From Bacillota bacterium (lineage in GTDB: Bacteria; Sysuimicrobiota; Sysuimicrobiia; Sysuimicrobiales; Segetimicrobiaceae), in the NCBI GenBank assembly GCA_021324975.1, contig JAJPIA010000085.1, positions 58,006 through 122,005 on the forward strand: 64,000 nt of DNA. Direction: 5' to 3'. Numbering within the stretch: the first letter of the stretch is position 1; each line of letters starts with the position of its first letter. Below, one piece after another: positions 1 through 64,000 of the stretch. The notes under the pieces were generated by a model. That model was given only the letters and a program-made list of their open reading frames with translations, was not told the origin of the DNA and did not search any database. The translations under genes were made by a program, and so were the position numbers.

Positions 1-618
1 GTTGCCGAGCGTTAGGTGCGCCACCGCGAGATCGTCGTCCTCCCCATGCACCGCGGCGCCGATCGCGCTCACGCGCGCCACCGACGATCGGAGCAGCGTG
101 AGGATGATATCGAGGTCGTGGATCATCAGGTCGAGAACCACGCCGACGTCCATCACACGCCGGCGGTCCCACGGCCGCACGCGGCGCACTTGCACGAACA
201 ACGGCTCGGTCACCTGGTCCCGAAGCGCCTGGACCGCCGGCTTGAATCGTTCGACGTGCCCTACCAGCAACACGACCCCGCGCCGGTGCGCGAGGTCGAC
301 GAGCTCCGCGGCCTGCTCCACGGTGGTGGTGATCGGTTTCTCCACCAGCACGTGCACGCCACGGTGCAGAAACTCTCGCGCGATCTCATAGTGCAGCGCC
401 GTCGGCACGACCAAGCTGACGGCATCTACCCGGCCGAACAACGCGCGGTAGTCGCGGTGACCCGGGATCTGATAGCGCCGCGAGAACACGCTCGTCTCGC
501 GCGGTGCGGTATCCACGACCCCCACGAGCTCGACGTCCGGCAGGTGGTGGTAGATCCGCACGTGGTGTTGTCCCCATTGCCCGAGCCCGACCACGCCGAC
601 GCGAACCCGGGCGCTCAT
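1..618 (-). CDS. Gfo/Idh/MocA-family NAD(P)-dependent oxidoreductase (C-terminus runs off the window start)
   Basis: Hand translation from ATG at 618 gives MSARVRVGVVGLGQWGQHHVRIY...RGVHVLVEKPITTTVEQAAELV. It has the N-terminal GxGxxG Rossmann motif and the EKP motif of this family, with no stop before position 1. It is missing from the ORF track because it is truncated. Confidence 0.8.
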   Translation of the reverse strand, partial: MSARVRVGVVGLGQWGQHHVRIYHHLPDVELVGVVDTAPRETSVFSRRYQIPGHRDYRALFGRVDAVSLVVPTALHYEIAREFLHRGVHVLVEKPITTTVEQAAELVDLAHRRGVVLLVGHVERFKPAVQALRDQVTEPLFVQVRRVRPWDRRRVMDVGVVLDLMIHDLDIILTLLRSSVARVSAIGAAVHGEDDDLAVAHLTLGN

Positions 619-625
619 CGACGGC

Positions 626-1747
626 TCACGAGGGATGCGGCACGAAGCTGCGAATCGCGCGGATCACCCGCTCGAGCGCCGCGTCGTCGAGGCCCGGATG
701 GACGGGGATGCTGAGGACCTCCTGCGCCGCGCGCTCCGCCTCCGGGCACCGCGCGGTCCCGTAGCCCTCGCGCACATACAGCGGCGTGCGATGGATCGGG
801 ACCGGATAGTACACGCGGCTCCCGACGCCGTGGGCGTTGAGGTGCTCGATCAGGCGGTCGCGCACGCGCGGCACCCGGATGGTGTATTGATGGTAGACGT
901 GCAGGCAGCCCGGCGGCTCGTACGGGAGCACGAGCCAGTCCAGGTCCGCGAGCGCGGCCGTGAGGCGGCGCGCGTGCTCCCGCCGGCGCGCATTCCGCGC
1001 GTCCAGATGCGCAAGCTGGATCGCGCCCAAGGCCCCGGCCATCTCGGTCATGCGGAAATTGTAGCCGAGGATCTCGTAGATGTACGGGGTCCGGCTCCCA
1101 CAGTTCACGAGCAGGCGCGCCGTGTCGGCGACCGTGCCGTCGTTGGTGACGAGCAGGCCCCCTTCCCCGGTCATCAGGTTCTTCGTGGGATACAGGCTGA
1201 AGGCGCCCGCCGTGCCAATGGTCCCGACCCGCCGCCCTCCAAAGGCGGCGCCGTGCGCCTGCGCCGCGTCCTCCAGGAGCACGAGGCCGCGGGCTTTCGC
1301 CATGGCCTCGAAGGCATCCATCTGACACGGGAGCCCGTAGAGGTGCACGAGCAGGAGGCCCTGCACATCGGGCGTTCGGTCGAGCGCCGCGGCCACGGCA
1401 TCGGGGTCAAGATTGTACGTGCGCGGGTCGATATCGACAAAGAGCGGGCGTGCGCCGCGGTGCAGCACCGCGTTGGCCGTGGCGCCGAACGAGAACGGCG
1501 TCGTGATCACCCGCGCGCCCCGGGTGATCCCGGCGGCCTCGACCGCGACCATCAACGCCGTCGTGCCGGACGACGTGGCAACCGCGTGCGCTGCCCCGAC
1601 GTACGCCGCAAAGCCCTCTTCAAACTCGCGCACCCGCCGGCCGGCGACGAGTCGTCCCGACTCAAGCACCTCGAGCACGCGGCGTTTCTCTTCATCCGTG
1701 ATCTGAGGCTGCGCGATCGGCACGGCGTACTGCGACGTCGTGTGCAT
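626..1747 (-). CDS. DegT/DnrJ/EryC1/StrS-family PLP-dependent sugar aminotransferase
   Basis: ORF 626..1927 trimmed to the internal ATG at 1747 (MHTTSQYAVPIAQPQITDEEK...). Family signatures are TSSGTTAL, DAAQAHG and FSLYPTKNLMTGEGG (PLP-lysine region). It ends 7 nt upstream of the oxidoreductase start. Confidence 0.9.
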   Translation of the reverse strand: MHTTSQYAVPIAQPQITDEEKRRVLEVLESGRLVAGRRVREFEEGFAAYVGAAHAVATSSGTTALMVAVEAAGITRGARVITTPFSFGATANAVLHRGARPLFVDIDPRTYNLDPDAVAAALDRTPDVQGLLLVHLYGLPCQMDAFEAMAKARGLVLLEDAAQAHGAAFGGRRVGTIGTAGAFSLYPTKNLMTGEGGLLVTNDGTVADTARLLVNCGSRTPYIYEILGYNFRMTEMAGALGAIQLAHLDARNARRREHARRLTAALADLDWLVLPYEPPGCLHVYHQYTIRVPRVRDRLIEHLNAHGVGSRVYYPVPIHRTPLYVREGYGTARCPEAERAAQEVLSIPVHPGLDDAALERVIRAIRSFVPHPS

Positions 1748-1892
1748 GCAACCGTCCTTCCCGCGGGCGATCCGCGGCAAGATTCTGCACGAGGACCGGT
1801 TTTCCTCTACTTCGGACGCGATTACGGTTGGCGCCCGGCCGCAATCGCGAGGCGTCGCGGCCGCGCGCGGTCTCGCGCCTCGCCGGGGCGCG

Positions 1893-2333
1893 TCACGGCC
1901 GCTCGAGCCTCCCGCGGAGGGCCGCAAGCATGCCGTCGAGGTTTTCCTTCATCTTGACGCGCAGGAGTTGGCTGAGCAGCGCGCCGATGAGCGGGATGCC
2001 GAATTCAAACTCCACGGTAATCGCGGTCCGCGTTCCGCCGTTCTCCGGCTCAAAGGACCACTCGCCTTCGTACCGCTCGAAGTCACCCTCGCGTTGCCGA
2101 AAGCGGCAGAGATGGCGGGCGTCGTCCCACGTGTCGTCCTCGGTCCAGCGAATACGGCGCCCCTCGACCGCCCCTACCCATTCCGTCCGGCTGGGCACGT
2201 CGCCGTCGCGCTCCAGGACGGTCACGCGCTCGAGGTCCGGCATGAACTGCGGGAAGTCTTCCACGCGTTTCGCCACCGCGTAGACTTGATCGAGCGGCGC
2301 TCGGATGAGCATCGACGCCTCGACGCGTGCCAT
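1893..2333 (-). CDS. SRPBCC / polyketide cyclase-dehydrase (START-like) family protein
   Basis: 146-aa ORF. MLIRAPLDQVYAVAKRVEDFPQFMP...YEGEWSFEP is a typical cyclase/dehydrase-fold pattern. Confidence 0.65.
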   Translation of the reverse strand: MARVEASMLIRAPLDQVYAVAKRVEDFPQFMPDLERVTVLERDGDVPSRTEWVGAVEGRRIRWTEDDTWDDARHLCRFRQREGDFERYEGEWSFEPENGGTRTAITVEFEFGIPLIGALLSQLLRVKMKENLDGMLAALRGRLERP

Positions 2334-2430
2334 GTGCCCCCCTTGTTATGATGCCGTCTGACGCCGGCGGCCGCAGACCATCGGGCCGCAGCGCCGCGGC
2401 CGCACCCTCACCCCGCTGCTTCCGCCGGCC

Positions 2431-3402
2431 TCACACGTGCAGTTCGATGACATCGCCGTCTTCGAGGACGTGCTCCCGCTGGACCATTTGGCCCTCGAAT
2501 GCGCGGGCCCCCCAGATGCGCGCATACTTGAGCCGCTCGACGAAGTCCTTGTGGACGGCCGCGCACGCGTCCGCCACGGTCGCGCCGCGCGGCAGGACAA
2601 ACGGAACGGATCGATCGGCGCGGCGGCCGGGGGCCTTGGTGTACACGCGGATCACGCGCAGCAACCCAAACAACTCCCGGCGCAGCGTCTCCAGTCCCGC
2701 GCCGGTCTCCGCGGAAACCGGCAGGATGTCGAAGCGCGCGCCCCACGCCTCGCGTAGGATCTCGAGGCGGACGGCCGCGCCGTCGGCGTCGAGCTTCGAC
2801 GCGACCATCAATGTCGGCACAGCGTCCTCCCCGCCGGTCCTCTCGAGACGCACCCTGGACTGCGCAGCCAGGTCCACGGTCGTGTCGATGCCGCTCAGCA
2901 GATCGTCGTCGGCCAGGTCGGCGACGAGCAGCGCCGCGTCCGCTTGGCGCACGAGGGCCAGCAACCATGGTTCCGCGCTCTCCGGCGCGATCGGCGGTAG
3001 GTCGACGAGCTGCACCTGGATGTCCTCGAACGGGACCATGCCGGGCAACGGGATCCGGGTCGAGAACGGATACGGCGCCACGACCGGCGCGGCGTGGCTC
3101 AATGCCGCCAGCAGGCGTGACTTGCCGGCGTTCGGCGGGCCGCCGAGCATGACCTGCCCGGCTCCCTCGCGCGGGACATGGTGCCAGGTCGGTCCTTTTC
3201 CCCCGGCCGTCTTGCGGCGCGCGGCCTCCGTCCGAGCCTTCGCCATCCGGCGCCGGATATCGGCGCGCATGTGTTCAGTGCCCTTGTGCTTGGGGATGAC
3301 GGCCATCATCGCCTCGAGAGCAGCCAGTTGCTCCTCGGGGTTGGTGGCTTGGCGGTACCGGCGTTCCGCCTCGAGATACTGCGGCGTCAGGTTCGCGGGC
3401 AT
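2431..3402 (-). CDS. Obg/DRG-like GTP-binding protein with C-terminal TGS domain
   Basis: 323-aa ORF with P-loop GGPPNAGKS and a C-terminal TGS-like segment (ATVADACAAVHKDFVERLKYARIWG...GDVIELHV). Confidence 0.75.
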   Translation of the reverse strand: MPANLTPQYLEAERRYRQATNPEEQLAALEAMMAVIPKHKGTEHMRADIRRRMAKARTEAARRKTAGGKGPTWHHVPREGAGQVMLGGPPNAGKSRLLAALSHAAPVVAPYPFSTRIPLPGMVPFEDIQVQLVDLPPIAPESAEPWLLALVRQADAALLVADLADDDLLSGIDTTVDLAAQSRVRLERTGGEDAVPTLMVASKLDADGAAVRLEILREAWGARFDILPVSAETGAGLETLRRELFGLLRVIRVYTKAPGRRADRSVPFVLPRGATVADACAAVHKDFVERLKYARIWGARAFEGQMVQREHVLEDGDVIELHV

Positions 3403-3560
3403 CGTCCAGGCTCAATTGTAGCAGAGGCGGTCCACGCCGCACCACGGCTACGACTTCGCCCTGGGCTGGATCAACGCGCACGGCGGTGTTCGGACAACCC
3501 CAACGCCGCGGCGGCGGTCAGCAGCAAGTACGGGGCCGCCTCGATGTTGGCAACGATAGG

Positions 3561-4526
3561 CTACGGGGCGGCCGGCCGGCCGGCCGCGAGATAGCGCGAC
3601 GGCAGCGCGTGGCCGAGCAAGGCGGCGAGCGGCCGCGAGGCTTCGCAGAGGCGGTCGAGGTCCACGCCCGTCTCGATGTCCATCCCGTCGAGCATGTACA
3701 CGAGATCCTCCGTGGCGAGGTTCCCCGAGGCGCCGGGCGCGTACGGGCATCCCCCGAGCCCGCCCGCGGCCGCATCGATCGTGGTGACGCCGCTCCACAG
3801 CGCGGTCAGGACGTTCGCGAGGGCCGTGCCTCTGGTATCGTGGAAGTGCACGGCGAGCGATCGAACCGGAACGTCCCGAACGAGCCGATCCAGCAGCGCC
3901 CACACCTCGTGCGGTGTGGCGGCGCCGATCGTGTCCCCGAGCGACACCTCGCGGCAGCCCATCTCGAGCAGGCGGCCGGCCACGCGGCGCACGGCATCCG
4001 ACCCAACGCGGCCCTCATACGGACACCACCAGGCGGTCGAGACGTAGGCACGCACGTGGGCGCCGTTCGCGGCGGCGAGGTCCACCACGCCCCGCGCGGC
4101 GCCGAGCGATTCGTCGATGCTCATATTGATGTTGCGCCGCGTAAAGGTCTCGGACGCCGCGGTGAACACCGCCACGTCCCTGAGGCCGCAGGCCATCGCT
4201 CGGACCATGCCGACCTGGTTCGGCACGAGCGCGGACAACTCGACCCCCTCCAGGGCGCCGAGGCGGCGCACCACGGCGTCCGTATCGGCCATCTGCGGCA
4301 CCCGATCCGGCCGTACGAACGCGCCGACCTCGATGGCCCGGAGCCCCGCGGCCGCGAGCCGGGAGATAAAGGCGACCTTGTCGGCGACGGTGAGCGGAGT
4401 GGATTCGTTTTGGAGGCCGTCGCGCGGGCCCACCTCGACGATCCGCACCCGTCCGGGCAGCCCGGCAAACGGCGTCGGCCGGAGCCGCGCGGGGCGCGTG
4501 GCCTCCACGACGGAGCCGACTGCCAT
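3561..4526 (-). CDS. Hydroxymethylglutaryl-CoA lyase
   Basis: ORF 3561..4967 trimmed to the ATG at 4526 (MAVGSVVE...). Motifs are VEVGPRDGLQNE, HFHDTRGTALAN and GLGGCPYAPGASGN. The start overlaps the upstream stop as TGATG. Confidence 0.9.
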   Translation of the reverse strand: MAVGSVVEATRPARLRPTPFAGLPGRVRIVEVGPRDGLQNESTPLTVADKVAFISRLAAAGLRAIEVGAFVRPDRVPQMADTDAVVRRLGALEGVELSALVPNQVGMVRAMACGLRDVAVFTAASETFTRRNINMSIDESLGAARGVVDLAAANGAHVRAYVSTAWWCPYEGRVGSDAVRRVAGRLLEMGCREVSLGDTIGAATPHEVWALLDRLVRDVPVRSLAVHFHDTRGTALANVLTALWSGVTTIDAAAGGLGGCPYAPGASGNLATEDLVYMLDGMDIETGVDLDRLCEASRPLAALLGHALPSRYLAAGRPAAP

Positions 4527-5035
4527 CAGCTCGCCCCGCCGCGCGGCACCGGCTCCAGCTGCGCGACCACCGCGTCCCCCTCGACGGGCTCCCCGACCGC
4601 GGCGCACAGCGCCCGCACCACGCCCGGAAACGGCGCGCGGACGACGTGCTCCATCTTCATCGCCTCCAGGGCCATGATCGGCTGCCCGGTCCTGACGGTC
4701 TCGCCGACCTGCACGTGGATCTTGACCACGAGGCCGGGCATCGGCGCCCGCAGGTCCCCGGACAGGGCCGACGGCGCCGTGGCGCCCGCCTCCGCGCGGG
4801 CCGTCTCCACCTCGATCGTCACGCCGTCGAGGTGCAGGTACGTGCGCCCGCCCCTGGGCGCGAAGTGCACGAGGCGGGCGCGGTCGCGGCATTCCACCAA
4901 CGCGAGGCCGGGCTCGAGGCGCGTGCAGCGGAACCGGTGGGTGCGGCCGCCGACGCGGACGACCCACGTGTCGCCCTCCCGCGAGGAGTCGCAGGCCACC
5001 GTGTCATCCCCCACCCGCAGCGTCCGCTCAGCCAT
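4526..5035 (-). CDS. Biotin carboxyl carrier (BT + BCCP) portion of the acyl-CoA carboxylase alpha subunit, encoded as a separate ORF
   Basis: 169-aa ORF with the biotinylation motif EAMKME in a lipoyl/biotinyl fold (PMPGLVVKIHVQVGETV...). It is in the same frame as the upstream biotin carboxylase ORF, separated by TGA plus 5 codons. Confidence 0.85.
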   Translation of the reverse strand: MAERTLRVGDDTVACDSSREGDTWVVRVGGRTHRFRCTRLEPGLALVECRDRARLVHFAPRGGRTYLHLDGVTIEVETARAEAGATAPSALSGDLRAPMPGLVVKIHVQVGETVRTGQPIMALEAMKMEHVVRAPFPGVVRALCAAVGEPVEGDAVVAQLEPVPRGGAS

Positions 5036-5050
5036 CCGCGCTTCGCGGCG

Positions 5051-6571
5051 TCACGCGCCGATCCGCCATGGGCCGATATGCGCCCACGGATCCCAGCCGA
5101 GCGGCGTCGCGCCGGCCGTTCCTCGATCTCGCGTCTCGTCCGCGTCCGGCTCGCCGCCGGCTTCCGCGAGCACGGCCGCCACCGCCGCCGCGAGCCCGTC
5201 CGCCTCGCCACGCCAGCCGGCGAAATACCGGCCGATGAACTGCGTCGTAGTGTCGCCGGCGCGGAACGCATCGTGCCGCACCACCGCGTGCAGGAACTCC
5301 AAGTTTGTGCGGCAGCCCAGGATGACGTACTGCGCGAGGGCCTCCCGCATCCGCGCGAGCGCATCGTCGCGGCTCTGCGCGTGCACGATCACCTTCGCCA
5401 GCAGCGGGTCGTACTCGGCCGGCACGCGCCAACCCGCGCGCAGGCCGGAGTCCACGCGCACCCCGGGGCCGCCCGGCTCCACAAGCGTCAGGATCGGCCC
5501 CGGCGTGGGCCGGAACCCTGCGGCGGGGTCCTCGGCACAGACGCGGCACTCAATCGCGTGCCCCCGGATCGGCACGGCGCGGGCCGCGCCCCGCGCCGCG
5601 CGGCCCGCCGGCAGCCGCTCCCCCGCCGCGATCCGCAGCTGCGTCGCGACGAGATCCGTCCCGGTCACGAGCTCCGTGACCGGGTGCTCGACCTGCAGCC
5701 GCGCGTTGACCTCGAGAAAGTACCAGTTGCGGTCCGCGTCCACGAGGAACTCCACGGTGCCCGCGTTCCGGTATCCGGCTTCCCGGGCAATCGCCACCGC
5801 CGCCTGCTCCAGACGCGCGCGGAGGCCGGCGGTCATGAACGGCGACGGCGCCTCCTCCACGAGCTTTTGATGCCGGCGCTGCACGCTGCACTCACGCTCG
5901 CCGAGTGCGACCACCGTGCCCGCACGGTCGGCGACGATCTGGACTTCCACATGATGGACGCCTTCGAGATGGTGTTCGAGCAACAGCGCGTCGCGATCAA
6001 AGGCCGCGCGGGCCTCGCGGCGCGCGGACGCGAGCGCGTCCCGCAGCGCCTCCGGCGCGTCCACCCGCCGCATGCCCAGGCCGCCGCCGCCCGCGGCGGC
6101 CTTGATCATCAGCGGAAAGCCGACCTGTGTCGCCGCGGCGACGAGCTCGTCGTCGGATGCGCCATCCCCGTCATAGCCGGGGACCGTGGGGACGCCGGCG
6201 CGCGCGGCAAGACGCCGCGCCTCGACCTTATCCCCGAGGCGCGCGATGACCTCGGCGGGCGGACCCACCCACACGAGGCTCGCCTCGCGTACGGCCGCCG
6301 CGAACGCCGCGGACTCGGCGAGAAAGCCGTACCCAGGATGGACCGCGTCCGCGCCGGCGCGCCGGGCGGCGTCGAGGAGGCGGTCGATGCTGAGATAGGT
6401 CTCGCGGCCCCCGGCCCCGCTGAGGGGCACGCGCACGTCCGCGAGGCGCGGGTGCAGGGCGTCCCGGTCGGGATCGGCGTAGACCGCGACCGAGCGCAGC
6501 CCCAGTTCGCGACACGCGCGGATGATGCGAACGGCGATCTCGCCGCGGTTCGCGACCAGCACGGTCTGCAT
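5051..6571 (-). CDS. Biotin carboxylase (ATP-grasp) portion of methylcrotonyl-CoA/acyl-CoA carboxylase alpha subunit
   Basis: ORF 5051..6913 trimmed to the ATG at 6571 (MQTVLVANRGEIAVRIIRACRELG...). ATP-grasp glycine loop AAAGGGGLGMR; EVNARLQVEHPVTE. Confidence 0.9.
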   Translation of the reverse strand: MQTVLVANRGEIAVRIIRACRELGLRSVAVYADPDRDALHPRLADVRVPLSGAGGRETYLSIDRLLDAARRAGADAVHPGYGFLAESAAFAAAVREASLVWVGPPAEVIARLGDKVEARRLAARAGVPTVPGYDGDGASDDELVAAATQVGFPLMIKAAAGGGGLGMRRVDAPEALRDALASARREARAAFDRDALLLEHHLEGVHHVEVQIVADRAGTVVALGERECSVQRRHQKLVEEAPSPFMTAGLRARLEQAAVAIAREAGYRNAGTVEFLVDADRNWYFLEVNARLQVEHPVTELVTGTDLVATQLRIAAGERLPAGRAARGAARAVPIRGHAIECRVCAEDPAAGFRPTPGPILTLVEPGGPGVRVDSGLRAGWRVPAEYDPLLAKVIVHAQSRDDALARMREALAQYVILGCRTNLEFLHAVVRHDAFRAGDTTTQFIGRYFAGWRGEADGLAAAVAAVLAEAGGEPDADETRDRGTAGATPLGWDPWAHIGPWRIGA

Positions 6572-56224: not shown

Positions 56225-56680
56225 TTAACTTGATGATTCCAGTGTCTGCACCAGCTTCACCAGGGCTTGTCGCGCGTCCGGCCATCGCAGCATGCCGACC
56301 GCTTCGTCTATCGGGAACCAGCCATACTGATCGTGCTCATCGTTCAGCTGAGGGTCCCAATTGATGCCCACCCGACCGGCAAATGCGTCGACCGTCACGG
56401 ACGTCACGTCCGGCGCGTACCAGGCGCGATATTCGGGCTCATCGTCGAGCATGTAGGCATAGCGGTGTTTGAGGTCGATAAGGCGATCTCCGAGCATCAG
56501 GCCCGTTTCCTCGCGTGTCTCCCGCACGGCCGCCTGGGCGCTCGTCTCCCCCGGATGCAACGCACCCGCGACGCCATGCCAGTATGCGCCTGCTGTGGGA
56601 GCGCGGTGAAGCAGCAGGACCTCATATCGCTCATTAACGCGCCGGTAGAGAAACACCAAACATTCGTGGGGAAGTCTCAC
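56225..56680 (-). CDS. Nudix hydrolase
   Basis: ORF 56225..56743 trimmed to the GTG at 56680 (SD GAAAGGA 6 nt upstream). Nudix box GALHPGETSAQAAVRETREETGL (GX5EX7REUXEEXGU). Confidence 0.85.
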   Translation of the reverse strand: MRLPHECLVFLYRRVNERYEVLLLHRAPTAGAYWHGVAGALHPGETSAQAAVRETREETGLMLGDRLIDLKHRYAYMLDDEPEYRAWYAPDVTSVTVDAFAGRVGINWDPQLNDEHDQYGWFPIDEAVGMLRWPDARQALVKLVQTLESSS

Positions 56681-56749
56681 GGTGGTCCTTTCGTCGTAGC
56701 GACTAGAGCGCCTTCCTACGCTGGCTTCCCCGGGGCGACACATACTGCA

Positions 56750-58276
56750 CTAATCATTTACAAACGCGCAGCCGCCGCGGGCCTTGCGCCCGAATACTTT
56801 TTTGTAGAGATCCTCGCCGTACGTGGTTTGCAGCGGCTCGCCTGGGACTACCTTGAACGTCCGGGTCCCACCCGGCCGCCGCTCCGCCCTTAGAAAGAGC
56901 GCATCTTCACTCCGCCGAGCGTGGAGGCCGTGCGCGAATGCGTACAAGTGCGTGACAAAAAAGACTTTGATGCCGCGCTCGGCGAGCGCCGAGGTGATCT
57001 GCCGTGCGATCTCCGAGCCCTCCCGCTCGTTCGTCGCCGCGAAGGATTCGTTGAACAGCATGAGCGCGTTGGGGTGGATCCGGTCTGCGATGTCGCTCAT
57101 GCGGCTGAGCTCTTCGTCGAATTTGCCGCTCTTCATGGACGGGTCTTCTTCCCGCTTGTAATGCGTGAAGAGACCGGAACACACATTGGCCCGGAACGAC
57201 GCGGCGGGCACGAACATACCGCACTGCATCATCAGCTGCGCCAGGCCGACACTGCGCAGAAAGGTGGACTTGCCGCCCTGGTTGGCGCCTGTGATGATCA
57301 CCGTGGTCCGGCCGTCGGCGTCCACGTCGTTGCCCACCACCCGCGATCCCACGGTCAGGCTCAAGCACACGTCGTACAGTCCGGCAAACGCATGCCGGCG
57401 TTGGTCCGCCCGCTCGGGAACGGGGAAGCATACCGGCTCGCCCTTGCGCGTGAGGTGCTCGTGGAGGTTCAGGCAGCCGACGTAGAAGGCCAGCTCGGCC
57501 CGCAGCATGGCGAAGAAGCTGAGGACGTGGTCGGCGGACTGCCCGAGCGCGTTCGCAACCAAGGCCACGCCTCGGTCCCGCAAGTCCGACAGGGCTCTCG
57601 CGCCCGCCTCGTCGCGGGGATGCAGGCGGTAGCTGTACGCCGGCGGCTTTTGCGCGAAGATGCGCTCGACCCAGCTCTGCGTGGTGTCGTGCGGCTTTCG
57701 GAGCACGTAGTTTGCGCCTTTGAGCCCCTGCCCCAATTCCGCGCTGACCAGCATGCCCTCGCGGAAGCGAAGCCGTCGCAGATGATCCCGAAGCTTGATG
57801 AAATAGCCGTCGTCGAGCTCGCGCCTGAGCGTTGCGAACAACCGCGTAAACCCCTCCGATTGGAACTCGTTGCCGTGCTCGTCGGCGACCTGTCGGAGGC
57901 GCCTGAGCAGGCCCTCGAATGCACCCAGCAAGTCCAGCGAGCGATGCAGGATGGTCCCTGGAGATCGAAAGACGGTCCAGTACCTCAGCTTCCGCTCTTC
58001 CAAGAACGCCTCGGTTGCGAGGCTATAGAGGCTTCGGACCGCGGCGGCGTTGTGGAGGCCATCCCGCAGCACGTCCTGCCGGTATCGGATCGCGTCCACG
58101 TCCGTCAAGCTGTCCAGCACGGCCGTCTGCACGACGCCGCGCACGAACTCATCGCCTCCTGCCATAGCGCCAAAGAGCGTGGCGAGTTCGAGATCCTGTG
58201 TGAGCGCCGGCGTATTCCACGGCAGCGGAGGTTGTACATCGAAATCACGATTGCGGTGCAGGAGGAATACCTTCAC
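56750..58276 (-). CDS. MutS-related ATPase (MutS domain V only, no mismatch-binding domain), subunit B
   Basis: 508-aa ORF with MutS-type Walker A ITGANQGGKSTFLRSVGLAQLMMQCGMFVPA, followed by MSDIADRIHPNALMLFNESFAATNEREG. There is no GxFxE mismatch-recognition N-domain. GTGA overlap with the upstream paralog. Confidence 0.85.
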   Translation of the reverse strand: MKVFLLHRNRDFDVQPPLPWNTPALTQDLELATLFGAMAGGDEFVRGVVQTAVLDSLTDVDAIRYRQDVLRDGLHNAAAVRSLYSLATEAFLEERKLRYWTVFRSPGTILHRSLDLLGAFEGLLRRLRQVADEHGNEFQSEGFTRLFATLRRELDDGYFIKLRDHLRRLRFREGMLVSAELGQGLKGANYVLRKPHDTTQSWVERIFAQKPPAYSYRLHPRDEAGARALSDLRDRGVALVANALGQSADHVLSFFAMLRAELAFYVGCLNLHEHLTRKGEPVCFPVPERADQRRHAFAGLYDVCLSLTVGSRVVGNDVDADGRTTVIITGANQGGKSTFLRSVGLAQLMMQCGMFVPAASFRANVCSGLFTHYKREEDPSMKSGKFDEELSRMSDIADRIHPNALMLFNESFAATNEREGSEIARQITSALAERGIKVFFVTHLYAFAHGLHARRSEDALFLRAERRPGGTRTFKVVPGEPLQTTYGEDLYKKVFGRKARGGCAFVND

Positions 58277-59844
58277 GATCCGATCCGCCGTTTCAGTTGA
58301 TCATAGGTGACCCGGTATCTCTCGGCAATCGACAGCGCGTAGGCGAGCCCGTCGGCCGCCGTTCTCACGACCTTGTAGGTGCGGACCGCGGGGTTGTCCG
58401 GGACGACGGCACTTACCATGCTGACGGTCTGCTCGCCGAGCGACGCCAGCTCGTCGATGAACGTGACGCACACGCACAGTAGGTCCAAGCGCATGATGGC
58501 GCCCATAATGTTCCGGCTCAGGAGGATGGCGTCGTCCAACACCGTCGACGTGAAGATCTCGTTCAGGATGATGATGCTGTCCGGTGTTGCCTGGTTCAGG
58601 ATCTTACGGATCCTCGCCAGGTCGTCTTCGAGCTTGCCCCGGAGCGTGGTGATGTCTTCTTCGCGCTCAAAGTGCGTGAAGAGCGCGTCGAACAGAAAGG
58701 TTCGCGCCTCCGTCCCGGCGACCGGGCAGCCGAGGCGGGCCAAATAGTGAAGTTGTCCGAACGTGCGGGCAAGCGTGGTCTTGCCGCCCTGGTTCGGACC
58801 GGATACCACGAGGATACGCTCGGGTCCGCGAAGGTAGAAGTCGTTGCAGACCACCGGCGACTTTTCCGGAATCAGCAGCTGGGCCAGGGCGAAGTCGTAG
58901 CCGTCGCGGCACAGCACGGCCTTGCTCTTGGAAACGCGCGGATAACACACGCTCAAGCCCGCGTTCCGGAACCGCGCGACGTACTCGAGGTACGCGATGT
59001 AAAATTGGATCTCCCGGTCAAAGGTGCGGATGACGCCGTCCTGGTATTCGCGGTGCTCGGTCCGGAACTCGTCGAGGCGGCGAAACTCCTCCGGCCACAG
59101 TTGGGCGGCGAACCCGACCACGGCGGCTTCGATGTGGTTCATGTCTCGCGCGCTGGTGAAGGAGACCGCGTAGTCGGTCACCGCGCCCTGCTTGAATCGC
59201 TCGAACGCTTGGACCACGTCGGCGCTGTAGTCGGCTTCGCCTTCGTACCGGCGGACGGTGAAACTGTCGCCCCGGATCAGGATGCAGTAGCGGATCGTGG
59301 CCAACCCTTGCTTGACCGATTGGATGTCCGCGACGAGCGATTGGAAGCGGTCAGACGCCACGTAACCCCGTAGATAGTCGCGGAACGCGACGAGGCCCCT
59401 TGCTCGCAACGGGGCGCCGTCCAAATCATGGGCCAGGGCGGTGGCGGTCTCGCAATAGAGCGCCGCCGCGTCCAGAAACCAGCTGTCCCTTTGCTGCTGA
59501 TAGTAGAACTTCTCGGCCTGCGTCAGGTGCTCGCGCATGGTCCGCATACGCTGCGCGAACGCCCGCAGGCACTCCAACACCGGGACGCGTTCGAGGTCCT
59601 GAAACACGTCGTGCCGGTACTCGATGTCGTCGAGGGTATCGAGCGGAGCGTGGAAGAACGGCCTGAGATTGTACTCGTCCTTGCCGGCCGTGACCGCTTC
59701 AACGATTTGGTCGAGATTGAGATCGGGAAAGCATTCGGGTACCTCGCCCCGCTCGACGCGCCCCTCGACTCTTTGCCATAAGATGCTGCGGAACGACGCC
59801 TCGGTGGCGGCGACGTCGGCCGGATGGATGGGGTTCGTGGCCAT
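58273..59844 (-). CDS. MutS-related ATPase (MutS domain V only), subunit A
   Basis: ORF 58273..59880 trimmed to the ATG at 59844 (MATNPIHPADV...), with SD GGAGG 10 nt upstream. Walker A VSGPNQGGKTTLARTFGQLHYLARLGCPVAG; SIIILNEIFTSTVLDD. The longer TTG start would lie inside the terminator U-tract. Confidence 0.85.
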   Translation of the reverse strand: MATNPIHPADVAATEASFRSILWQRVEGRVERGEVPECFPDLNLDQIVEAVTAGKDEYNLRPFFHAPLDTLDDIEYRHDVFQDLERVPVLECLRAFAQRMRTMREHLTQAEKFYYQQQRDSWFLDAAALYCETATALAHDLDGAPLRARGLVAFRDYLRGYVASDRFQSLVADIQSVKQGLATIRYCILIRGDSFTVRRYEGEADYSADVVQAFERFKQGAVTDYAVSFTSARDMNHIEAAVVGFAAQLWPEEFRRLDEFRTEHREYQDGVIRTFDREIQFYIAYLEYVARFRNAGLSVCYPRVSKSKAVLCRDGYDFALAQLLIPEKSPVVCNDFYLRGPERILVVSGPNQGGKTTLARTFGQLHYLARLGCPVAGTEARTFLFDALFTHFEREEDITTLRGKLEDDLARIRKILNQATPDSIIILNEIFTSTVLDDAILLSRNIMGAIMRLDLLCVCVTFIDELASLGEQTVSMVSAVVPDNPAVRTYKVVRTAADGLAYALSIAERYRVTYDQLKRRIGS

Positions 59845-59873
59845 TAGCAATGAGCCTCCAACCCAGCGAGCGG

Positions 59874-59913
59874 ACAACAAAAAAGCCTCTACGGTCTCGC
59901 GATCCCGTAGAAG
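59874..59913 (-). terminator. Intrinsic terminator acting as expression platform of the minus-strand fluoride riboswitch
   Basis: Minus-strand RNA CUUCUACGG-GAUCGCGAGA-CCGUAGAGG, a 9-bp stem with one G-U pair, followed by CUUUUUUGUUGU. The 5' arm reuses the aptamer pseudoknot strand GCUUCUAC. It ends about 30 nt before the ATG at 59844. Confidence 0.85.
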
Positions 59914-59962
59914 CTATCGGTCGCCGGACACCCCGGCGACGGTTTAGGCGAGCTTCATCGCC
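59907..59962 (-). promoter_or_regulatory. Fluoride riboswitch aptamer (crcB RNA motif), minus strand
   Basis: RNA GGCGA-UGAAGC-UCGCC-UAAAC-C-GUCGCCGG-GGUGU-CCGGCGAC-CGAUA-GCUUC-UAC. It has a P1 hairpin, an AAAC linker, a P3 hairpin and a GAUA...CUAC 3' tail. The tail GCUUC pairs with loop GAAGC as a pseudoknot. This is the architecture and conserved nucleotides I recall for the crcB motif. Confidence 0.88.
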
Positions 59963-59981
59963 TCGGATCTCGTGCGCTCAC

Positions 59982-60011
59982 ATTATAGGGGCGTCGAAAA
60001 GACTCCGTCAA
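59982..60011 (-). promoter_or_regulatory. Sigma-70-type promoter for the riboswitch/MutS-like transcript
   Basis: On the minus strand: TTGACG (60011..60006), 18-nt spacer, TATAAT (59987..59982). The predicted TSS is about 12 nt upstream of aptamer P1. Confidence 0.7.
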
Positions 60012-60176
60012 TCGGCGCCGCCGGACCGCGGACGGCAGGGGTGACCGCCGTACGGCTCCTCCATGCGACGCCATCACCGCGAGGGAACAGTTACCGGACT
60101 GCATCGAATTGAGCGCCCACGCCGAACGCGCCAACGACGGTGCGCTGCGGCGGGATCAAACTCGCCCAGAGCTGCG

Positions 60177-60206
60177 TTGACAGGCTGCTTCGTTTGGAAA
60201 TACCAT
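60177..60206 (+). promoter_or_regulatory. Sigma-70-type promoter for the plus-strand riboswitch/MFS transcript
   Basis: TTGACA (60177..60182), 18-nt spacer, TACCAT (60201..60206). The predicted TSS is a few nt upstream of the plus-strand aptamer. Confidence 0.55.
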
Positions 60207-60217
60207 GAACGCATCAC

Positions 60218-60266
60218 GGTGATGAGGCTCACCGAAACTGCCGGGCGACCGGCTGATAGCCTCTAC
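60218..60266 (+). promoter_or_regulatory. Fluoride riboswitch aptamer (crcB RNA motif), plus strand
   Basis: RNA GGUGA-UGAGGC-UCACC-GAAAC-U-GCCGG-GCGA-CCGGC-UGAUA-GCCUC-UAC. It has the same architecture as the minus-strand copy, with pseudoknot GAGGC/GCCUC and a GNRA-capped P3. The GAUGAGGC...AAACUGCC...GCUGAU.GCCUCUAC string closely matches the well-studied Thermotoga aptamer as I remember it. Confidence 0.88.
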
Positions 60267-60296
60267 CCGGTACGGGCGGGGGCTTCTGCATGTGTG
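60259..60296 (+). terminator. Candidate terminator/expression platform of the plus-strand riboswitch
   Basis: GCCUCUACCCG-GUA-CGGGCGGGGGC, an 11-position stem with one A.C mismatch and two G-U pairs, followed by UUCUGCAUGUGU. The 5' arm again contains the pseudoknot strand. The U-tract is weak. Confidence 0.45.
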
Positions 60297-60486
60297 GCGG
60301 CCTCTCCCCTCGTGCTTCCTCCGATTACGCGCCGACTTGCGATTCACGGATACGCGCGCCGCGTATGCCGCGGGCGCGCCGACCAAGAGAACGTGCCGCC
60401 GTGACGAAGGATCCGTGTATCGCGTTTCTCACGGAGTCGCAGATGTTTACGAGCAATGCCACGAACTCAGGGGGACATTCCCTATC

Positions 60487-61740
60487 ATGGCGGTTCCCGT
60501 AGCCCGGCCGGCAGGCCGGGAAGCGGCCCGCGCCGCGGCGCTCCGGTTCGTGGTGCTGCTGGGCGTCGTGAGCATGTTCTCCGACATGACGCACGAGGGC
60601 GCCCGCGGCATCACGGGGCCGTTTCTGGGCATGCTCGGGGCGAGCGCGCTGATCGTGGCGACCGTCGCGGGCGTCGGGGAGTTCTTGGGGTATGCGCTGC
60701 GCTTTCTGTTCGGTTCCCTGGCCGACCGGACCGGCATGTATTGGCCGATTACCTTGGTTGGATATACGATTCAAATGCTGGCCGTTCCGGCGCTCGCGCT
60801 GGTGGGGCATTGGCCGGCCGCGGCGCTGTTGATCGTGACGGAACGCTCCGGGCGGGCCATGCGAAATCCGCCGCGGGATGCAATGCTCGCACACGCCACT
60901 TGCGGGCTCGGCGCGGGCTGGGTCTTTGGCCTGCGCGAAGCGCTGGACGCGGCCGGCGCGATGATCGGCCCCCTGATCGTGGCGGCAACCGTTTACGTGC
61001 GAGGGGGGTATCGGTTGGGCTTCGCGGTCCTGATCGTCCCCGCGTTGCTCACCCTCATCGTACTCCTGAGCGCCTGGCGGCAGTATCCCCGACCGCACGA
61101 CCTCGGCGCCCCAGAGCGCATCCCGCAGGCCGCGGGTATCCCGCGTGTGTTTTGGATCTACCTGGGGGGCATGGCGCTCGTCGCGGCAGCCTATGTCGAC
61201 TACCCGCTCGCGGCGTATCACTTCGCCAGGAGCGGCGCGGTGCCACCCGCCTGGATCCCGATCTTGTATGCGGTAGCCATGGCAGCCGAAGCGGCCGGGG
61301 CGCTCGCGCTCGGGCGTCTCTTCGACCGCATCGGCCTCGCCACCGTGGTGTGGGCGACGGCGGCCACCGCGTTCTTCGGGCCGTTCATCTTCCTCGGCAA
61401 CACCGTGCTCGTTGTTCTCGGAATGGTCCTGTGGGGACTGGGCATAGCGGCGCAAGAGTCCGTTGTCAAAGCCGCCGTTACCGGCATGGTCGGCGCCGAG
61501 CGGCGAGCGTCTGCCTACGGTCTCTTCGACGCCGGCTTTGGCACGGCATGGATGCTCGGGAGCGTCGCGCTCGGGGTACTCTACAACCTGTCCGTGTACG
61601 CGCTGGTCGCCTTCACGGTGCTGCTGCAGCTCGCCGCGCTCCCTGTCTTCGCGGCGACCAGGCGGGCCATGCCAACGGAGCCTGTCCAAGGGCGGAGCCG
61701 CGGCAACTTCCCTGGGAACCGCGGTGACGGCACACGCTAA
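60487..61740 (+). CDS. Major facilitator superfamily (MFS) transporter
   Basis: ORF 60292..61740 trimmed to the ATG at 60487 (MAVPVARPAGREAARAAALRFVVLLGVVSMFSDMTHEG...), with AGGGGGA upstream. It has about 12 hydrophobic segments with a central loop. It is the only plus-strand gene in the window. Confidence 0.8.
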   Translation: MAVPVARPAGREAARAAALRFVVLLGVVSMFSDMTHEGARGITGPFLGMLGASALIVATVAGVGEFLGYALRFLFGSLADRTGMYWPITLVGYTIQMLAVPALALVGHWPAAALLIVTERSGRAMRNPPRDAMLAHATCGLGAGWVFGLREALDAAGAMIGPLIVAATVYVRGGYRLGFAVLIVPALLTLIVLLSAWRQYPRPHDLGAPERIPQAAGIPRVFWIYLGGMALVAAAYVDYPLAAYHFARSGAVPPAWIPILYAVAMAAEAAGALALGRLFDRIGLATVVWATAATAFFGPFIFLGNTVLVVLGMVLWGLGIAAQESVVKAAVTGMVGAERRASAYGLFDAGFGTAWMLGSVALGVLYNLSVYALVAFTVLLQLAALPVFAATRRAMPTEPVQGRSRGNFPGNRGDGTR

Positions 61741-62147
61741 GCGTGGCGAGGGTTAGGACGTCCACCTCGGGCGCGCGGTCGCTCCGACGCGGCGTCGGGT
61801 AGGATCGCGGCTCGCACCCGCTCCAACGCGTCCTGGACTGCGGCCACGTCGCGTGGCGACGGTGCTTCCAATCCGTACCGCACATGACTGTACAGGTCCG
61901 TGAGCGTCTCGATGGCAACCGAAGCGGCCGGTCGATACGAGCTTACCATGTGCGCTAACTCGGCGGGCGTCTGGCTCTTGGGGCGGCGTGCTCCCAACGT
62001 GTCTGCGAGACCGAGGAACTCGGCGTACGCCCGCCGGACGATGGCGGCCGTACCAGCCCCGAAATCTTGGCCGATACCCGTGGTGTCCCGCGCGCGTCGG
62101 CGGAAGAGATCGTGCCAAGACGCACGGAGATCCGTCCAGGACCACAC
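61737..62147 (-). CDS. DUF4129 domain protein (C-terminal module normally fused to a membrane N-terminus)
   Basis: 136-aa ORF (GTG start). The pattern RRAYAEFLGLADTLGARRPKSQTPAELAHMV...LTDLYSHVRYG matches DUF4129 as I recall it. It is in frame with the upstream membrane ORF across a single TAG. Confidence 0.6.
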   Translation of the reverse strand: MWSWTDLRASWHDLFRRRARDTTGIGQDFGAGTAAIVRRAYAEFLGLADTLGARRPKSQTPAELAHMVSSYRPAASVAIETLTDLYSHVRYGLEAPSPRDVAAVQDALERVRAAILPDAASERPRARGGRPNPRHA

Positions 62148-62150
62148 CGA

Positions 62151-63299
62151 CTAGCGCACGATGTCGGCGGGGTGGCGCCGGCCCACCCGCTCATACCGAA
62201 ATACAGACCGGGCAATCAGCAGCAATACGACTGCCAGCAAGGCCAGCGCCGCCCCCCACCGTAGCGCTGCGGCCGCTTCGGGCGGTAATCCAGCCGTGTG
62301 CCCCTGAGACAATTGTTGCAGCCACGCCGCGGGCGACGGCGAGGGCATCGGCTGCACGGCGTGGGGATGCAGCATACGGCGGATCGCCCAGACAATTCCC
62401 GAGAGAACGAACCCGATCGGCACGGCGATCACATAGAGGAGCGCAAGCAGCACCGCATCCAATGCCGGCGCCACGGCGCGAAAGACAGCCGCGACATCGA
62501 GCCGCAATACGGCGCCTGCGAGCGTGGCGACGACCAGTACGGCGGCCGCGGCCCCTACCACCAGCGCGTACCAGTCCGCCGTCACCGCGGCGTTTTGCTG
62601 TGACGCGCGAGTCTGACGGTGCACGGACTGCAACCGCGCAATCGGTAGCGCGATCAGGCTGACGAGGAAGAACCCAAGCAGATACGGAAAACCGGCCGCC
62701 GCCGCGGCGGTGAGCGGAGGAACCGTGTGCCCGGCCGCCATCACGGCAGCGAACACGCCAAACGCCGCGAGCCCGAGCGTGAAGATGGTCTCGACGTCGT
62801 AGTATTCGAGCGTCGTGCGGCCGATCACGAGCGCACGGCGCCACACCAGCATCGCGAAGACCCACGCCGGCAGCTCCGGGCGTGCCCCGGCCAGGATCGA
62901 GACCAGCCACTCGCGGGCCGGGCCGTGCAGGAGGCGCCAGGCCGGATCAGCGCGGTATTGCCAGACGACGGCCAATGCCCCGGCCGCGGCGCCTCCCACG
63001 ACCAGCGCGACGCGGGCTGGCGCGATGCGCGCCCCGGCAGGGCGCGATAGGCCCGCTCGGCCCACGATTTGCCCGCCGGCAAGCAACACGCAGACGGTCA
63101 CCGGAGCGAGCAGGCTCGACGGGGCGCCGAGCCAGATCGTGCCCGCGAGGATGGCGTACGGGACAATCCACGCAGCGTCCATCGCCGCCACGAGCAACGG
63201 CAGGGTCCATCCCGGCGAGTCGGGCGCGCCGCTCCCCGCCGCAGCCGACCGGGACCTGTTCTCGGAAGGGTCCTCTCGCGTCCGCAGCACCGATCGCAT
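62151..63299 (-). CDS. Multi-pass membrane protein (N-terminal module of a DUF4129-type protein in a MoxR/DUF58 operon)
   Basis: 382-aa ORF with numerous hydrophobic helices. It starts 8 nt after the DUF58 stop and ends at a TAG that is in frame with the DUF4129 ORF. Confidence 0.7.
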   Translation of the reverse strand: MRSVLRTREDPSENRSRSAAAGSGAPDSPGWTLPLLVAAMDAAWIVPYAILAGTIWLGAPSSLLAPVTVCVLLAGGQIVGRAGLSRPAGARIAPARVALVVGGAAAGALAVVWQYRADPAWRLLHGPAREWLVSILAGARPELPAWVFAMLVWRRALVIGRTTLEYYDVETIFTLGLAAFGVFAAVMAAGHTVPPLTAAAAAGFPYLLGFFLVSLIALPIARLQSVHRQTRASQQNAAVTADWYALVVGAAAAVLVVATLAGAVLRLDVAAVFRAVAPALDAVLLALLYVIAVPIGFVLSGIVWAIRRMLHPHAVQPMPSPSPAAWLQQLSQGHTAGLPPEAAAALRWGAALALLAVVLLLIARSVFRYERVGRRHPADIVR

Positions 63300-63306
63300 C
63301 TCGGGC

Positions 63307-64000
63307 CTACGCCAGCGCTACGCGGCGCACGTCACGCCACGCGTCCTCGCCGCGCACCTCGAATACCGGGAGGTCATCGGCGGTGACCGTCCGGGCGTCC
63401 GAGCCAATCACTACGAGACCCGCGGACCTTCCCGTGCGTCTGGCCGCTCGCAGGGCTTCGACGGCTTCCGGTTCCGGCACGGCCGTGATCGCGAGCACGC
63501 TCGTCCCCCAGGGGAGGGCCGGCATCTCCGCCGCGAGCAGTTCCTCCAGCGGCGTCGTCGCCACCGGGGCCACCGTAGCGAGCGCTTCGAGCACGGTCTG
63601 CAGCTGCTGCGGATGGTCGCTCGGGGGAACGGCAATCGTCGCCATGCCCGCGCCACGGAAGCGGGGACCGTTGACGTAGAGGCCAACCGGAAGTTTCTGC
63701 TCCGCACTCCATGCGGCGACCGACGCGGCCACGATGATCGCCACCTCGACGAGCAGCGGATCGTACCCCGCCCACCAGGCGTGCCCCCGCAGCGTGTGCA
63801 TGTCCAGAAAGAGCGCAAGGCGCGGGTGGGTCGTCGGCTCGAAGATCTTGACGTGCAGCCGCCGAAGTCGGGCGGACGCCTTCCAGTGGATACGCCGGAG
63901 CGAGTCGCCGGCCTCATAGGGGCGCACGCCGGCAAGATGCGCGGGGTCCTCCCAAAGCGTGCGCGGCGCGATGAGATCTCCGAACGGGCCCTGCGCGTCC
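63307..64000 (-). CDS. DUF58 (vWA-like) protein, N-terminus beyond the window end
   Basis: The frame of ORF 63307..63927 stays open to position 64000 (DAQGPFGDLIAPRTLWEDPAHLAGVRPYEAGDSLRRIHWKASAR...). The R.Y..GD..R.I.WK block is the DUF58 hallmark. Confidence 0.8.
   Translation of the reverse strand, partial: DAQGPFGDLIAPRTLWEDPAHLAGVRPYEAGDSLRRIHWKASARLRRLHVKIFEPTTHPRLALFLDMHTLRGHAWWAGYDPLLVEVAIIVAASVAAWSAEQKLPVGLYVNGPRFRGAGMATIAVPPSDHPQQLQTVLEALATVAPVATTPLEELLAAEMPALPWGTSVLAITAVPEPEAVEALRAARRTGRSAGLVVIGSDARTVTADDLPVFEVRGEDAWRDVRRVALA

Follow-up and report, generated by a model that had tools for sequence, protein, structure and literature searches.

Introduction

The crcB motif was described in 2010 as an RNA element upstream of mutS-type genes, of genes for K+ or Cl- transport and of formate hydrogen lyase genes, often with an overlapping terminator (PMC2864571). 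Fluoride was later found to be its ligand, and the set of genes was termed a 'super-regulon' (PMC7266159). According to a 2024 review, fluoride riboswitches raise the expression of downstream genes, and their frequent targets are exporters, Na+/H+ antiporters, pyrophosphatase, HAD phosphatases, enolase, formate hydrogen lyase and chorismate mutase (PMC11139923). Hence, targets other than channels are normal for the class. Here we analyse a stretch of 64,000 nucleotides from a Bacillota bacterium (the window; positions 58,006 to 122,005 of JAJPIA010000085.1, a public metagenomic contig of 330 kb), in which two aptamers of the crcB motif lie on opposite strands of one intergenic region.

We suggest, with a probability of about 85%, that these are two ON riboswitches of the ordinary crcB-motif class, which respond to fluoride independently of each other, face in opposite directions and each act in cis on their own mRNA. 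The minus arm leads into a pair of genes for MutS-like ATPases and is, given the published target lists, a textbook case. The plus arm leads into a gene for a transporter of the major facilitator superfamily (MFS). Related loci fetched for comparison are denoted by L-numbers; L087 is the public contig beyond the right end of the window.

Two fluoride riboswitch aptamers with compensatory base changes

The whole window was searched with cmscan against Rfam 15, in which RF01734 has a gathering score of 34 bits. RF01734 was the sole family above its gathering score, with two matches, both spanning the entire model (1-64 of 64):

60209-60272, plus strand: fluoride riboswitch aptamer, plus copy (RF01734, 40.6 bits, E 8.7e-8)
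59971-59901, minus strand: fluoride riboswitch aptamer, minus copy (RF01734, 38.6 bits, E 3.7e-7)

In the RF01734 alignments P1 is paired at four of four positions and no non-canonical pairs are flagged. P1 reads GGCG/CGCC in the minus copy and GGUG/CACC in the plus copy, with a C-G pair replaced by U-A. The pseudoknot is GAAGC/GCUUC in the minus copy and GAGGC/GCCUC in the plus copy, with all five pairs formed in each and an A-U pair replaced by G-C. The GAUG, AAAC, GAUA and CUAC nucleotides are the same in both. P3 has 8 bp closed by a GGUGU loop in the minus copy and 5 bp closed by a GCGA loop in the plus copy. An earlier reading of the bare sequence (the original prediction) had P3 differing completely between the copies while staying paired. 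The pairing and the two lengths stand, but the difference was overstated: of the four outer pairs in the Rfam model three are shared and one differs (U-A versus C-G).

Since the RF01734 covariance model gives the pseudoknot no score, we tallied it separately over 42 aptamers from related loci. All five pairs form in the same register in 40 of them, with more than 10 sequence combinations, and the pairing becomes far worse when the 3' strand is slid by 1-2 nt. P1 is fully paired in 41 of the 42, with the variants GGCG, GGUG, GGGG, GGCA, GGAG and GGAA, and its third pair is C-G, U-A, G-C or A-U. The differences between the two copies in P1 and in the pseudoknot are compensatory and lie at positions that covary family-wide. 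The original prediction had claimed both changes, the identity of the unpaired nucleotides and the presence of two functional-type copies rather than chance matches. The covariance-model alignment places its pairs in register in both copies, above the gathering score, and together with the family-wide register it identifies both as bona fide fluoride riboswitch aptamers.

Each arm has its own sigma-70-like promoter

We scanned 59700-60600 for consensus promoters and compared the result with dinucleotide shuffles. Two sigma-70-like sites were found, where 0.0 are expected in the shuffles. Their conservation can be followed in the closest relative of the locus, L001 (MutS-like protein 89% identical), and in L088 (MFS protein 79% identical), which holds a promoter and aptamer cassette at 1520-1621.

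60011-60006, minus strand: -35 box TTGACG of the MutS-arm promoter (11 of 12 matches together with the -10 box, 18-nt spacer; conserved in L001)
59987-59982, minus strand: -10 box TATAAT of the MutS-arm promoter (same in L001; predicted start at about 59973-59976)
60177-60182, plus strand: -35 box TTGACA of the MFS-arm promoter (10 of 12 matches together with the -10 box, 18-nt spacer; conserved in the L088 1520-1621 cassette)
60201-60206, plus strand: -10 box TACCAT of the MFS-arm promoter (from the scan and the L088 cassette; predicted start at about 60213)

The -10 boxes end 3-10 nt upstream of the respective aptamers. The -35 boxes are 165 bp apart, as had been noted, and about 238 bp separate the predicted start sites, so the scan agrees with divergent transcription from separate promoters. 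From the end of the aptamer to the gene start there are 57 nt in the minus arm and 214 nt in the plus arm. The locus had also been called one bidirectional control region. As a description of a shared divergent intergenic region this is adequate; as a statement on function it is not, given that each riboswitch is expected to act in cis on its own transcript and that the arms are separable, as described below.

A terminator behind the minus copy shares the pseudoknot strand

The features downstream of the minus copy are as follows:

59915-59879, minus strand: intrinsic terminator with an 11-bp stem (arms 59915-59905 and 59894-59884) and U6 at 59884-59879
59855-59859, minus strand: Shine-Dalgarno sequence GGAGG, 10 nt upstream of the ATG at 59844-59842, conserved in L001
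58273-59844, minus strand: MutS-like ATPase A, 523 aa (PF00488, 2.1e-14; MutS domain V only)
56750-58276, minus strand: MutS-like ATPase B, 508 aa (PF00488 only), its start overlapping the stop of A by 4 nt (GTGA)

The stem arms of the terminator are AGCUUCUACGG/CCGUAGAGGCU. Its folding energy is -17.5 kcal/mol with a z-score of -4.3, and none of 200 shuffles is equally stable. The 5' arm includes the entire 3' strand of the pseudoknot, GCUUC (59914-59910). The RNA can therefore adopt either the ligand-bound fold or the terminator, but not both at once. A terminator scan gave no match on either arm; it missed the minus-arm terminator because the loop has 10 nt.

Neither A nor B can be taken for the mismatch-repair MutS or the endonuclease MutS2. 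Against the NCBIfam equivalog cut-offs of 480 bits (MutS) and 400 bits (MutS2), protein A reaches 64.8 and 60.5 bits and protein B 67.5 and 74.1 bits, respectively, and both consist of domain V alone: only PF00488 was matched in the Pfam search, with no mismatch-binding, connector, core or clamp domain in either protein. Protein A belongs to a very large family with about 60% identity, and the pair of genes recurs in L001, L023 and L026. Downstream of B lies a gene for a NUDIX hydrolase (56225-56743, minus strand), separated by 7-70 nt depending on the start codon. It may be co-transcribed with the MutS-like pair, and it is missing at the equivalent position in L001.

The plus arm has a weaker candidate expression platform

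Downstream of the plus copy we find:

60259-60297, plus strand: candidate expression platform with the hairpin GCCUCU-A-CCCG/GUA/CGGG-C-GGGGGC at 60259-60283 and a U-poor tail UUCUGCAUGUGUGG
60487-61740, plus strand: MFS transporter (PF07690), 417 aa as called on the public contig, with a 214-nt leader

The 5' arm of this hairpin begins at the 3' strand of the pseudoknot, GCCUC. Several observations weigh against the reading of two fluoride-responsive ON riboswitches, and most of them concern this arm. With -16.8 kcal/mol and a z-score of -1.5 the hairpin is no more stable than shuffles, and its tail UUCUGCAUGUGU falls short of a canonical U-tract. The long MFS leader is not conserved with the L088 leader; a second conserved element was sought by aligning the two, with background similarity as the only outcome. 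The aptamers encountered here score from 34.5 to 60.5 bits, and with 38.6 and 40.6 bits the two window copies lie low in that range. Finally, sigma-70 consensus promoters are an assumption, because the host is an uncultured high-G+C bacterium.

Nevertheless, almost all the aptamers examined have behind them a hairpin that begins precisely with the pseudoknot strand, and the MFS aptamer of L088 is followed at the same position by a perfect 12-bp hairpin with -23.8 kcal/mol and a z-score of -5.2. Because of these stronger equivalents we suggest, by analogy and with a slight preference, that the plus arm would work like the minus arm, through its weak-tailed hairpin. The lack of a U-tract and the unexceptional stability against shuffles could also mean that the plus copy does without intrinsic termination, and that the MFS gene is controlled by Rho-dependent termination in the long C-rich leader or at translation initiation. 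The leader holds a C-rich, G-poor stretch CCUCUCCCCUCGUGCUUCCUCC at about 60299-60325, and in L081 the 3' arm of the equivalent hairpin reaches the MFS ribosome-binding region, so that translational platforms do exist in the MFS family. We regard this alternative as unlikely, though worth keeping in view: the perfect hairpin of L088 favours a terminator-like role, and in partition-function folding the MFS ribosome-binding site has equally low accessibility with or without the aptamer 3' strand, so that no thermodynamic relay is visible. A translational relay to the MFS Shine-Dalgarno sequence, considered separately, was rejected, the site being predicted as occluded alike in both aptamer states.

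The arms are separable modules

L001 contains a DUF4129 gene, then one riboswitch and then the MutS pair, and has neither a MFS gene nor a second aptamer at this locus. It is about 95% identical to the window from the -35 box through the aptamer, the terminator and the ribosome-binding site to the ATG, with a compensatory U-A to C-G change in P3, and upstream of the -35 box the homology extends for only about 10 nt. The MutS arm thus stands alone in L001, and the arms are therefore separable modules; even so near a relative does not share the divergent layout.

L088 also has a divergent pair of aptamers around its MFS gene; with 33.8 and 32.7 bits, both score slightly below the cut-off. This locus holds a third aptamer (1558-1621, 43.3 bits), which differs from the plus copy of the window by one base in 64 nt. 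The surrounding cassette of promoter and aptamer is nearly the same as that of the window plus copy, while its flanks diverge, and it drives a 527-aa DUF6062-like protein rather than the MFS gene. The presence of a near-identical cassette ahead of a different gene suggests that riboswitch cassettes may have been shuffled between fluoride-response genes.

The genes that are split over the two arms of the window would form a single operon in L065, a metagenome-assembled genome of Dehalococcoidia. There, a candidate aptamer found by a sequence-plus-pairing descriptor only, below the Rfam gathering score, is followed by MFS, MutSA and MutSB genes in series (291-5384).

Divergent pairs recur and the window holds part of a four-riboswitch island

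Rfam-level divergent pairs of fluoride riboswitches are present in four further loci, L008, L047, L064 and L081, all fetched through MFS homologues. The contig itself carries a second divergent pair some 5.5 kb from the first, just outside the window (window-equivalent positions of about 65553-65858):

L087 3987-4052, minus strand: aptamer, 35.4 bits, facing a hydrogenlyase-like operon of NADHdh, Proton_antipo_M and Complex1 genes
L087 4217-4292, plus strand: aptamer, 32.7 bits (E 1e-5), under the cut-off of 34, facing a MoxR-DUF58-DUF4129 operon

Hence, four aptamers are found within roughly 6 kb, and window positions 61740-64000 hold the 3' part of the MoxR-DUF58-DUF4129 operon. The original prediction had regarded two divergent riboswitches of one class in front of non-channel genes as unusual. 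The comparison does not support this. Such pairs occur in at least four other genomes and once more on the same contig; mutS-type targets were listed as early as 2010 (PMC2864571), and the MFS family recurs in fluoride riboswitch operons. The divergent arrangement, which the prediction had proposed to follow in homologous loci, recurs in the four loci named above and is absent from L001, where the MutS arm occurs alone.

Divergent pairs with the aptamers 113-237 nt apart in L008, L047, L081, L087 and L088 could reflect selection for the layout itself. If so, the back-to-back placement would be functional, with the two promoters coupled, for example by supercoiling, by upstream DNA that they share or by a protein that binds within the 165-bp spacer. 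We consider this improbable. A regulator site was sought in the spacer, and weak inverted repeats (73-83% complementary) were the only outcome; moreover, riboswitch control takes place after initiation and in cis. The MutS arm of L001 keeps its promoter intact although it stands alone, and the candidate aptamer of L065 precedes all three genes in one operon. The partner on the other arm varies as well: it is a MutS pair, a dynamin-like GTPase, a NADH-dehydrogenase-like subunit, a CBS protein or a 486-aa protein without a Pfam match. As the partner gene differs each time, the recurrence argues for a clustering of fluoride-response operons rather than for a specific bidirectional device.

Two further observations concern this neighbourhood and its relatives. 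In the DUF4129 gene (61740-63299, minus strand) the window has TAG at 62153, where the ENA and Logan copies of the contig have GAG (Glu). This is the only base that differs between the window and both public copies in 15.7 kb, and it splits the 520-aa DUF4129 protein into open reading frames of 382 and 136 aa. In L033 two tandem fluoride aptamers (2146-2212 and 2275-2340, plus strand; 52.5 and 43.1 bits) are separated by 62 nt and precede a MFS homologue.

The MFS family is recurrently linked to fluoride riboswitches

Homologues of the window MFS protein are 55-79% identical to it. The family extends over bacteria and archaea, with 45-79% identity and the invariant motifs FSDMTHEGA and FGLREALDA. 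A profile of 16 MFS homologues gave 80 loci from bacteria and archaea, and the first 20 were taken without selection. Eight of these 20 contain fluoride aptamers by Rfam, 10 in total, and in six loci the aptamer is upstream on the same strand. Fluoride riboswitches are rare per genome, and the chance expectation is well under one match in 147 kb.

For the full set we used the sequence-plus-pairing descriptor. On the 20 calibration loci its strict matches were the 10 Rfam matches and nothing else; it missed 6 of 24 later Rfam matches, which have AAU for GAU or other variants. A MAFFT alignment of 13 aptamers misplaced the variable linker and P3; the descriptor was used, and no custom covariance model. 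Strict descriptor matches were obtained in 24 of the 80 MFS loci, and Rfam confirmed them and added more in 16 positive loci. In four loci, L047, L063 (an archaeon), L064 and L081, an Rfam-level aptamer immediately precedes the MFS gene. Elsewhere the MFS gene follows CrcB, Na+/H+ exchanger, Usp, DUF190-CBS, histidine phosphatase or dynamin-like genes in riboswitch operons. Both the MFS homologues and the MutS pair belong to the 'super-regulon' in the sense of recurrent placement behind fluoride riboswitches in unrelated genomes.

These loci also bear on the possibility that one copy, most likely the plus copy, is a decaying duplicate that no longer regulates, with the MFS gene expressed constitutively from its own promoter. 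The weak expression platform of the plus arm would fit such a decay, as would the lack of the entire MFS arm in L001 and the MFS homologues of 72% identity without a riboswitch in L090 and L092. However, it is the plus copy that has the higher Rfam score (40.6 bits), with P1 and P3 intact and the pseudoknot complete. Its promoter and aptamer are preserved nearly base for base in L088, where the neighbouring sequence has diverged, and MFS homologues stand directly behind aptamers in the four loci listed above; the candidate of L065, which Rfam does not report at its gathering score, also precedes a MFS gene. We therefore hold a decaying duplicate to be very improbable and retain the reading of two regulating copies.

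MFS homologues with 72% identity are also found in L090 (3031-7260) and L091, where they lack a fluoride aptamer and are preceded by ArsR-like, methyltransferase and ArsP_1 genes. The MFS family is therefore not exclusively fluoride-linked. This ArsR-methyltransferase-ArsP context had suggested an arsenic transporter, a candidate that we set aside; NCBIfam gives only a weak generic MFS match. The family has no relative in the Protein Data Bank by sequence profile and no NCBIfam equivalog.

The riboswitch-controlled genes of the window carry MutS_V and MFS_1 domains, neither CRCB nor Voltage_CLC. No CrcB or CLC-F gene was detected in the approximately 70 kb of the window and L087, the test being a weak one, tblastn with one CrcB sequence as query. 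We tentatively propose, as a rather unlikely but attractive possibility, that the MFS family is an uncharacterised, widely distributed fluoride-resistance effector and that the four-riboswitch island encodes a channel-independent fluoride response. The transporter could be a third kind of fluoride/HF exporter, or a carrier of small anions or carboxylates that offsets fluoride toxicity. In the open-access literature we found no paper that ties an MFS transporter to this riboswitch class; as this coverage does not take in the gene table in Baker et al. 2012, we cannot claim novelty for the association.

Genes for dynamin-family GTPases (465-584 aa) come first behind the aptamers of three genomes that are unrelated to one another, in L008 (1-1827, minus strand), L075 (1201-2907, plus strand) and L083 (1966-3360, plus strand). 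The proteins of L008 and L075 match Dynamin_N, and that of L083 is assigned by sequence resemblance only. We met no mention of this target class in the reviews consulted.

Proposed mechanism of the two arms

Step 1: In the minus arm RNA polymerase would start near 59975 and transcribe the aptamer. When fluoride is absent, the GCUUC strand would be drawn into the 11-bp terminator, and transcription would stop at U6 before the MutS-like genes are reached.

Step 2: With Mg2+-fluoride bound, the pseudoknot would keep the GCUUC strand, the terminator would be blocked, and the translationally coupled genes of the MutS-domain-V ATPases would be transcribed. The response to the ligand and the ON polarity are those expected from the riboswitch class.

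Step 3: In the plus arm transcription would start near 60213, and the hairpin probably competes for the pseudoknot strand GCCUC. In view of the weak U-tail, the attenuation could be inefficient, or it could depend on a factor. Read-through would lead to expression of the MFS transporter.

Comparison with known systems and significance

The riboswitch pair involves no new principle, and its divergent layout is a recurrent packing of fluoride-response operons. The switches mark a compact island of genes predicted to be induced by fluoride, mostly without a known role in fluoride tolerance: the MutS-domain-V ATPase pair and the MFS transporter and, outside the window, the MoxR-DUF58-DUF4129 operon and the hydrogenlyase-like complex. 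More interest attaches to the MFS family, whose link to riboswitches across phyla and in archaea makes it a testable candidate for a missing piece of fluoride physiology, which is of relevance for the engineering of organofluorine degradation, limited by fluoride toxicity (PMC11139923).

The closest described system is the ON-type crcB motif (RF01734) of Bacillus cereus crcB. Both window copies share with it P1, P3, the pseudoknot between the P1 loop and the 3' tail, the conserved unpaired nucleotides and the location in a 5' leader, and the terminator of the minus copy overlaps the 3' strand of the pseudoknot as in the family. Unlike the B. cereus element, which lies ahead of crcB, neither copy precedes a fluoride channel or antiporter, and in the plus arm the leader is long and the hairpin lacks a U-tract. 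The minus arm matches the 'DNA repair (mutS)' class of crcB-motif targets (Weinberg et al. 2010, PMC2864571); however, the window proteins are paired ATPases with domain V only and not mismatch-repair MutS. As in tandem riboswitches, two aptamers of the same class lie within a few hundred bases, but here they are on opposite strands and in separate transcripts, so that no cooperative or two-input logic is built on one mRNA.

For the MFS transporter the comparison is structural. The best superpositions of its AlphaFold model (pLDDT 87.7) are those with OxlT (TM 0.76-0.81) and with SfMCT, MCT1 and MCT8. The transporter is only 13-18% identical to OxlT and the monocarboxylate transporters; the resemblance of the model to them gives a weak hint that its substrate may be a small anion.

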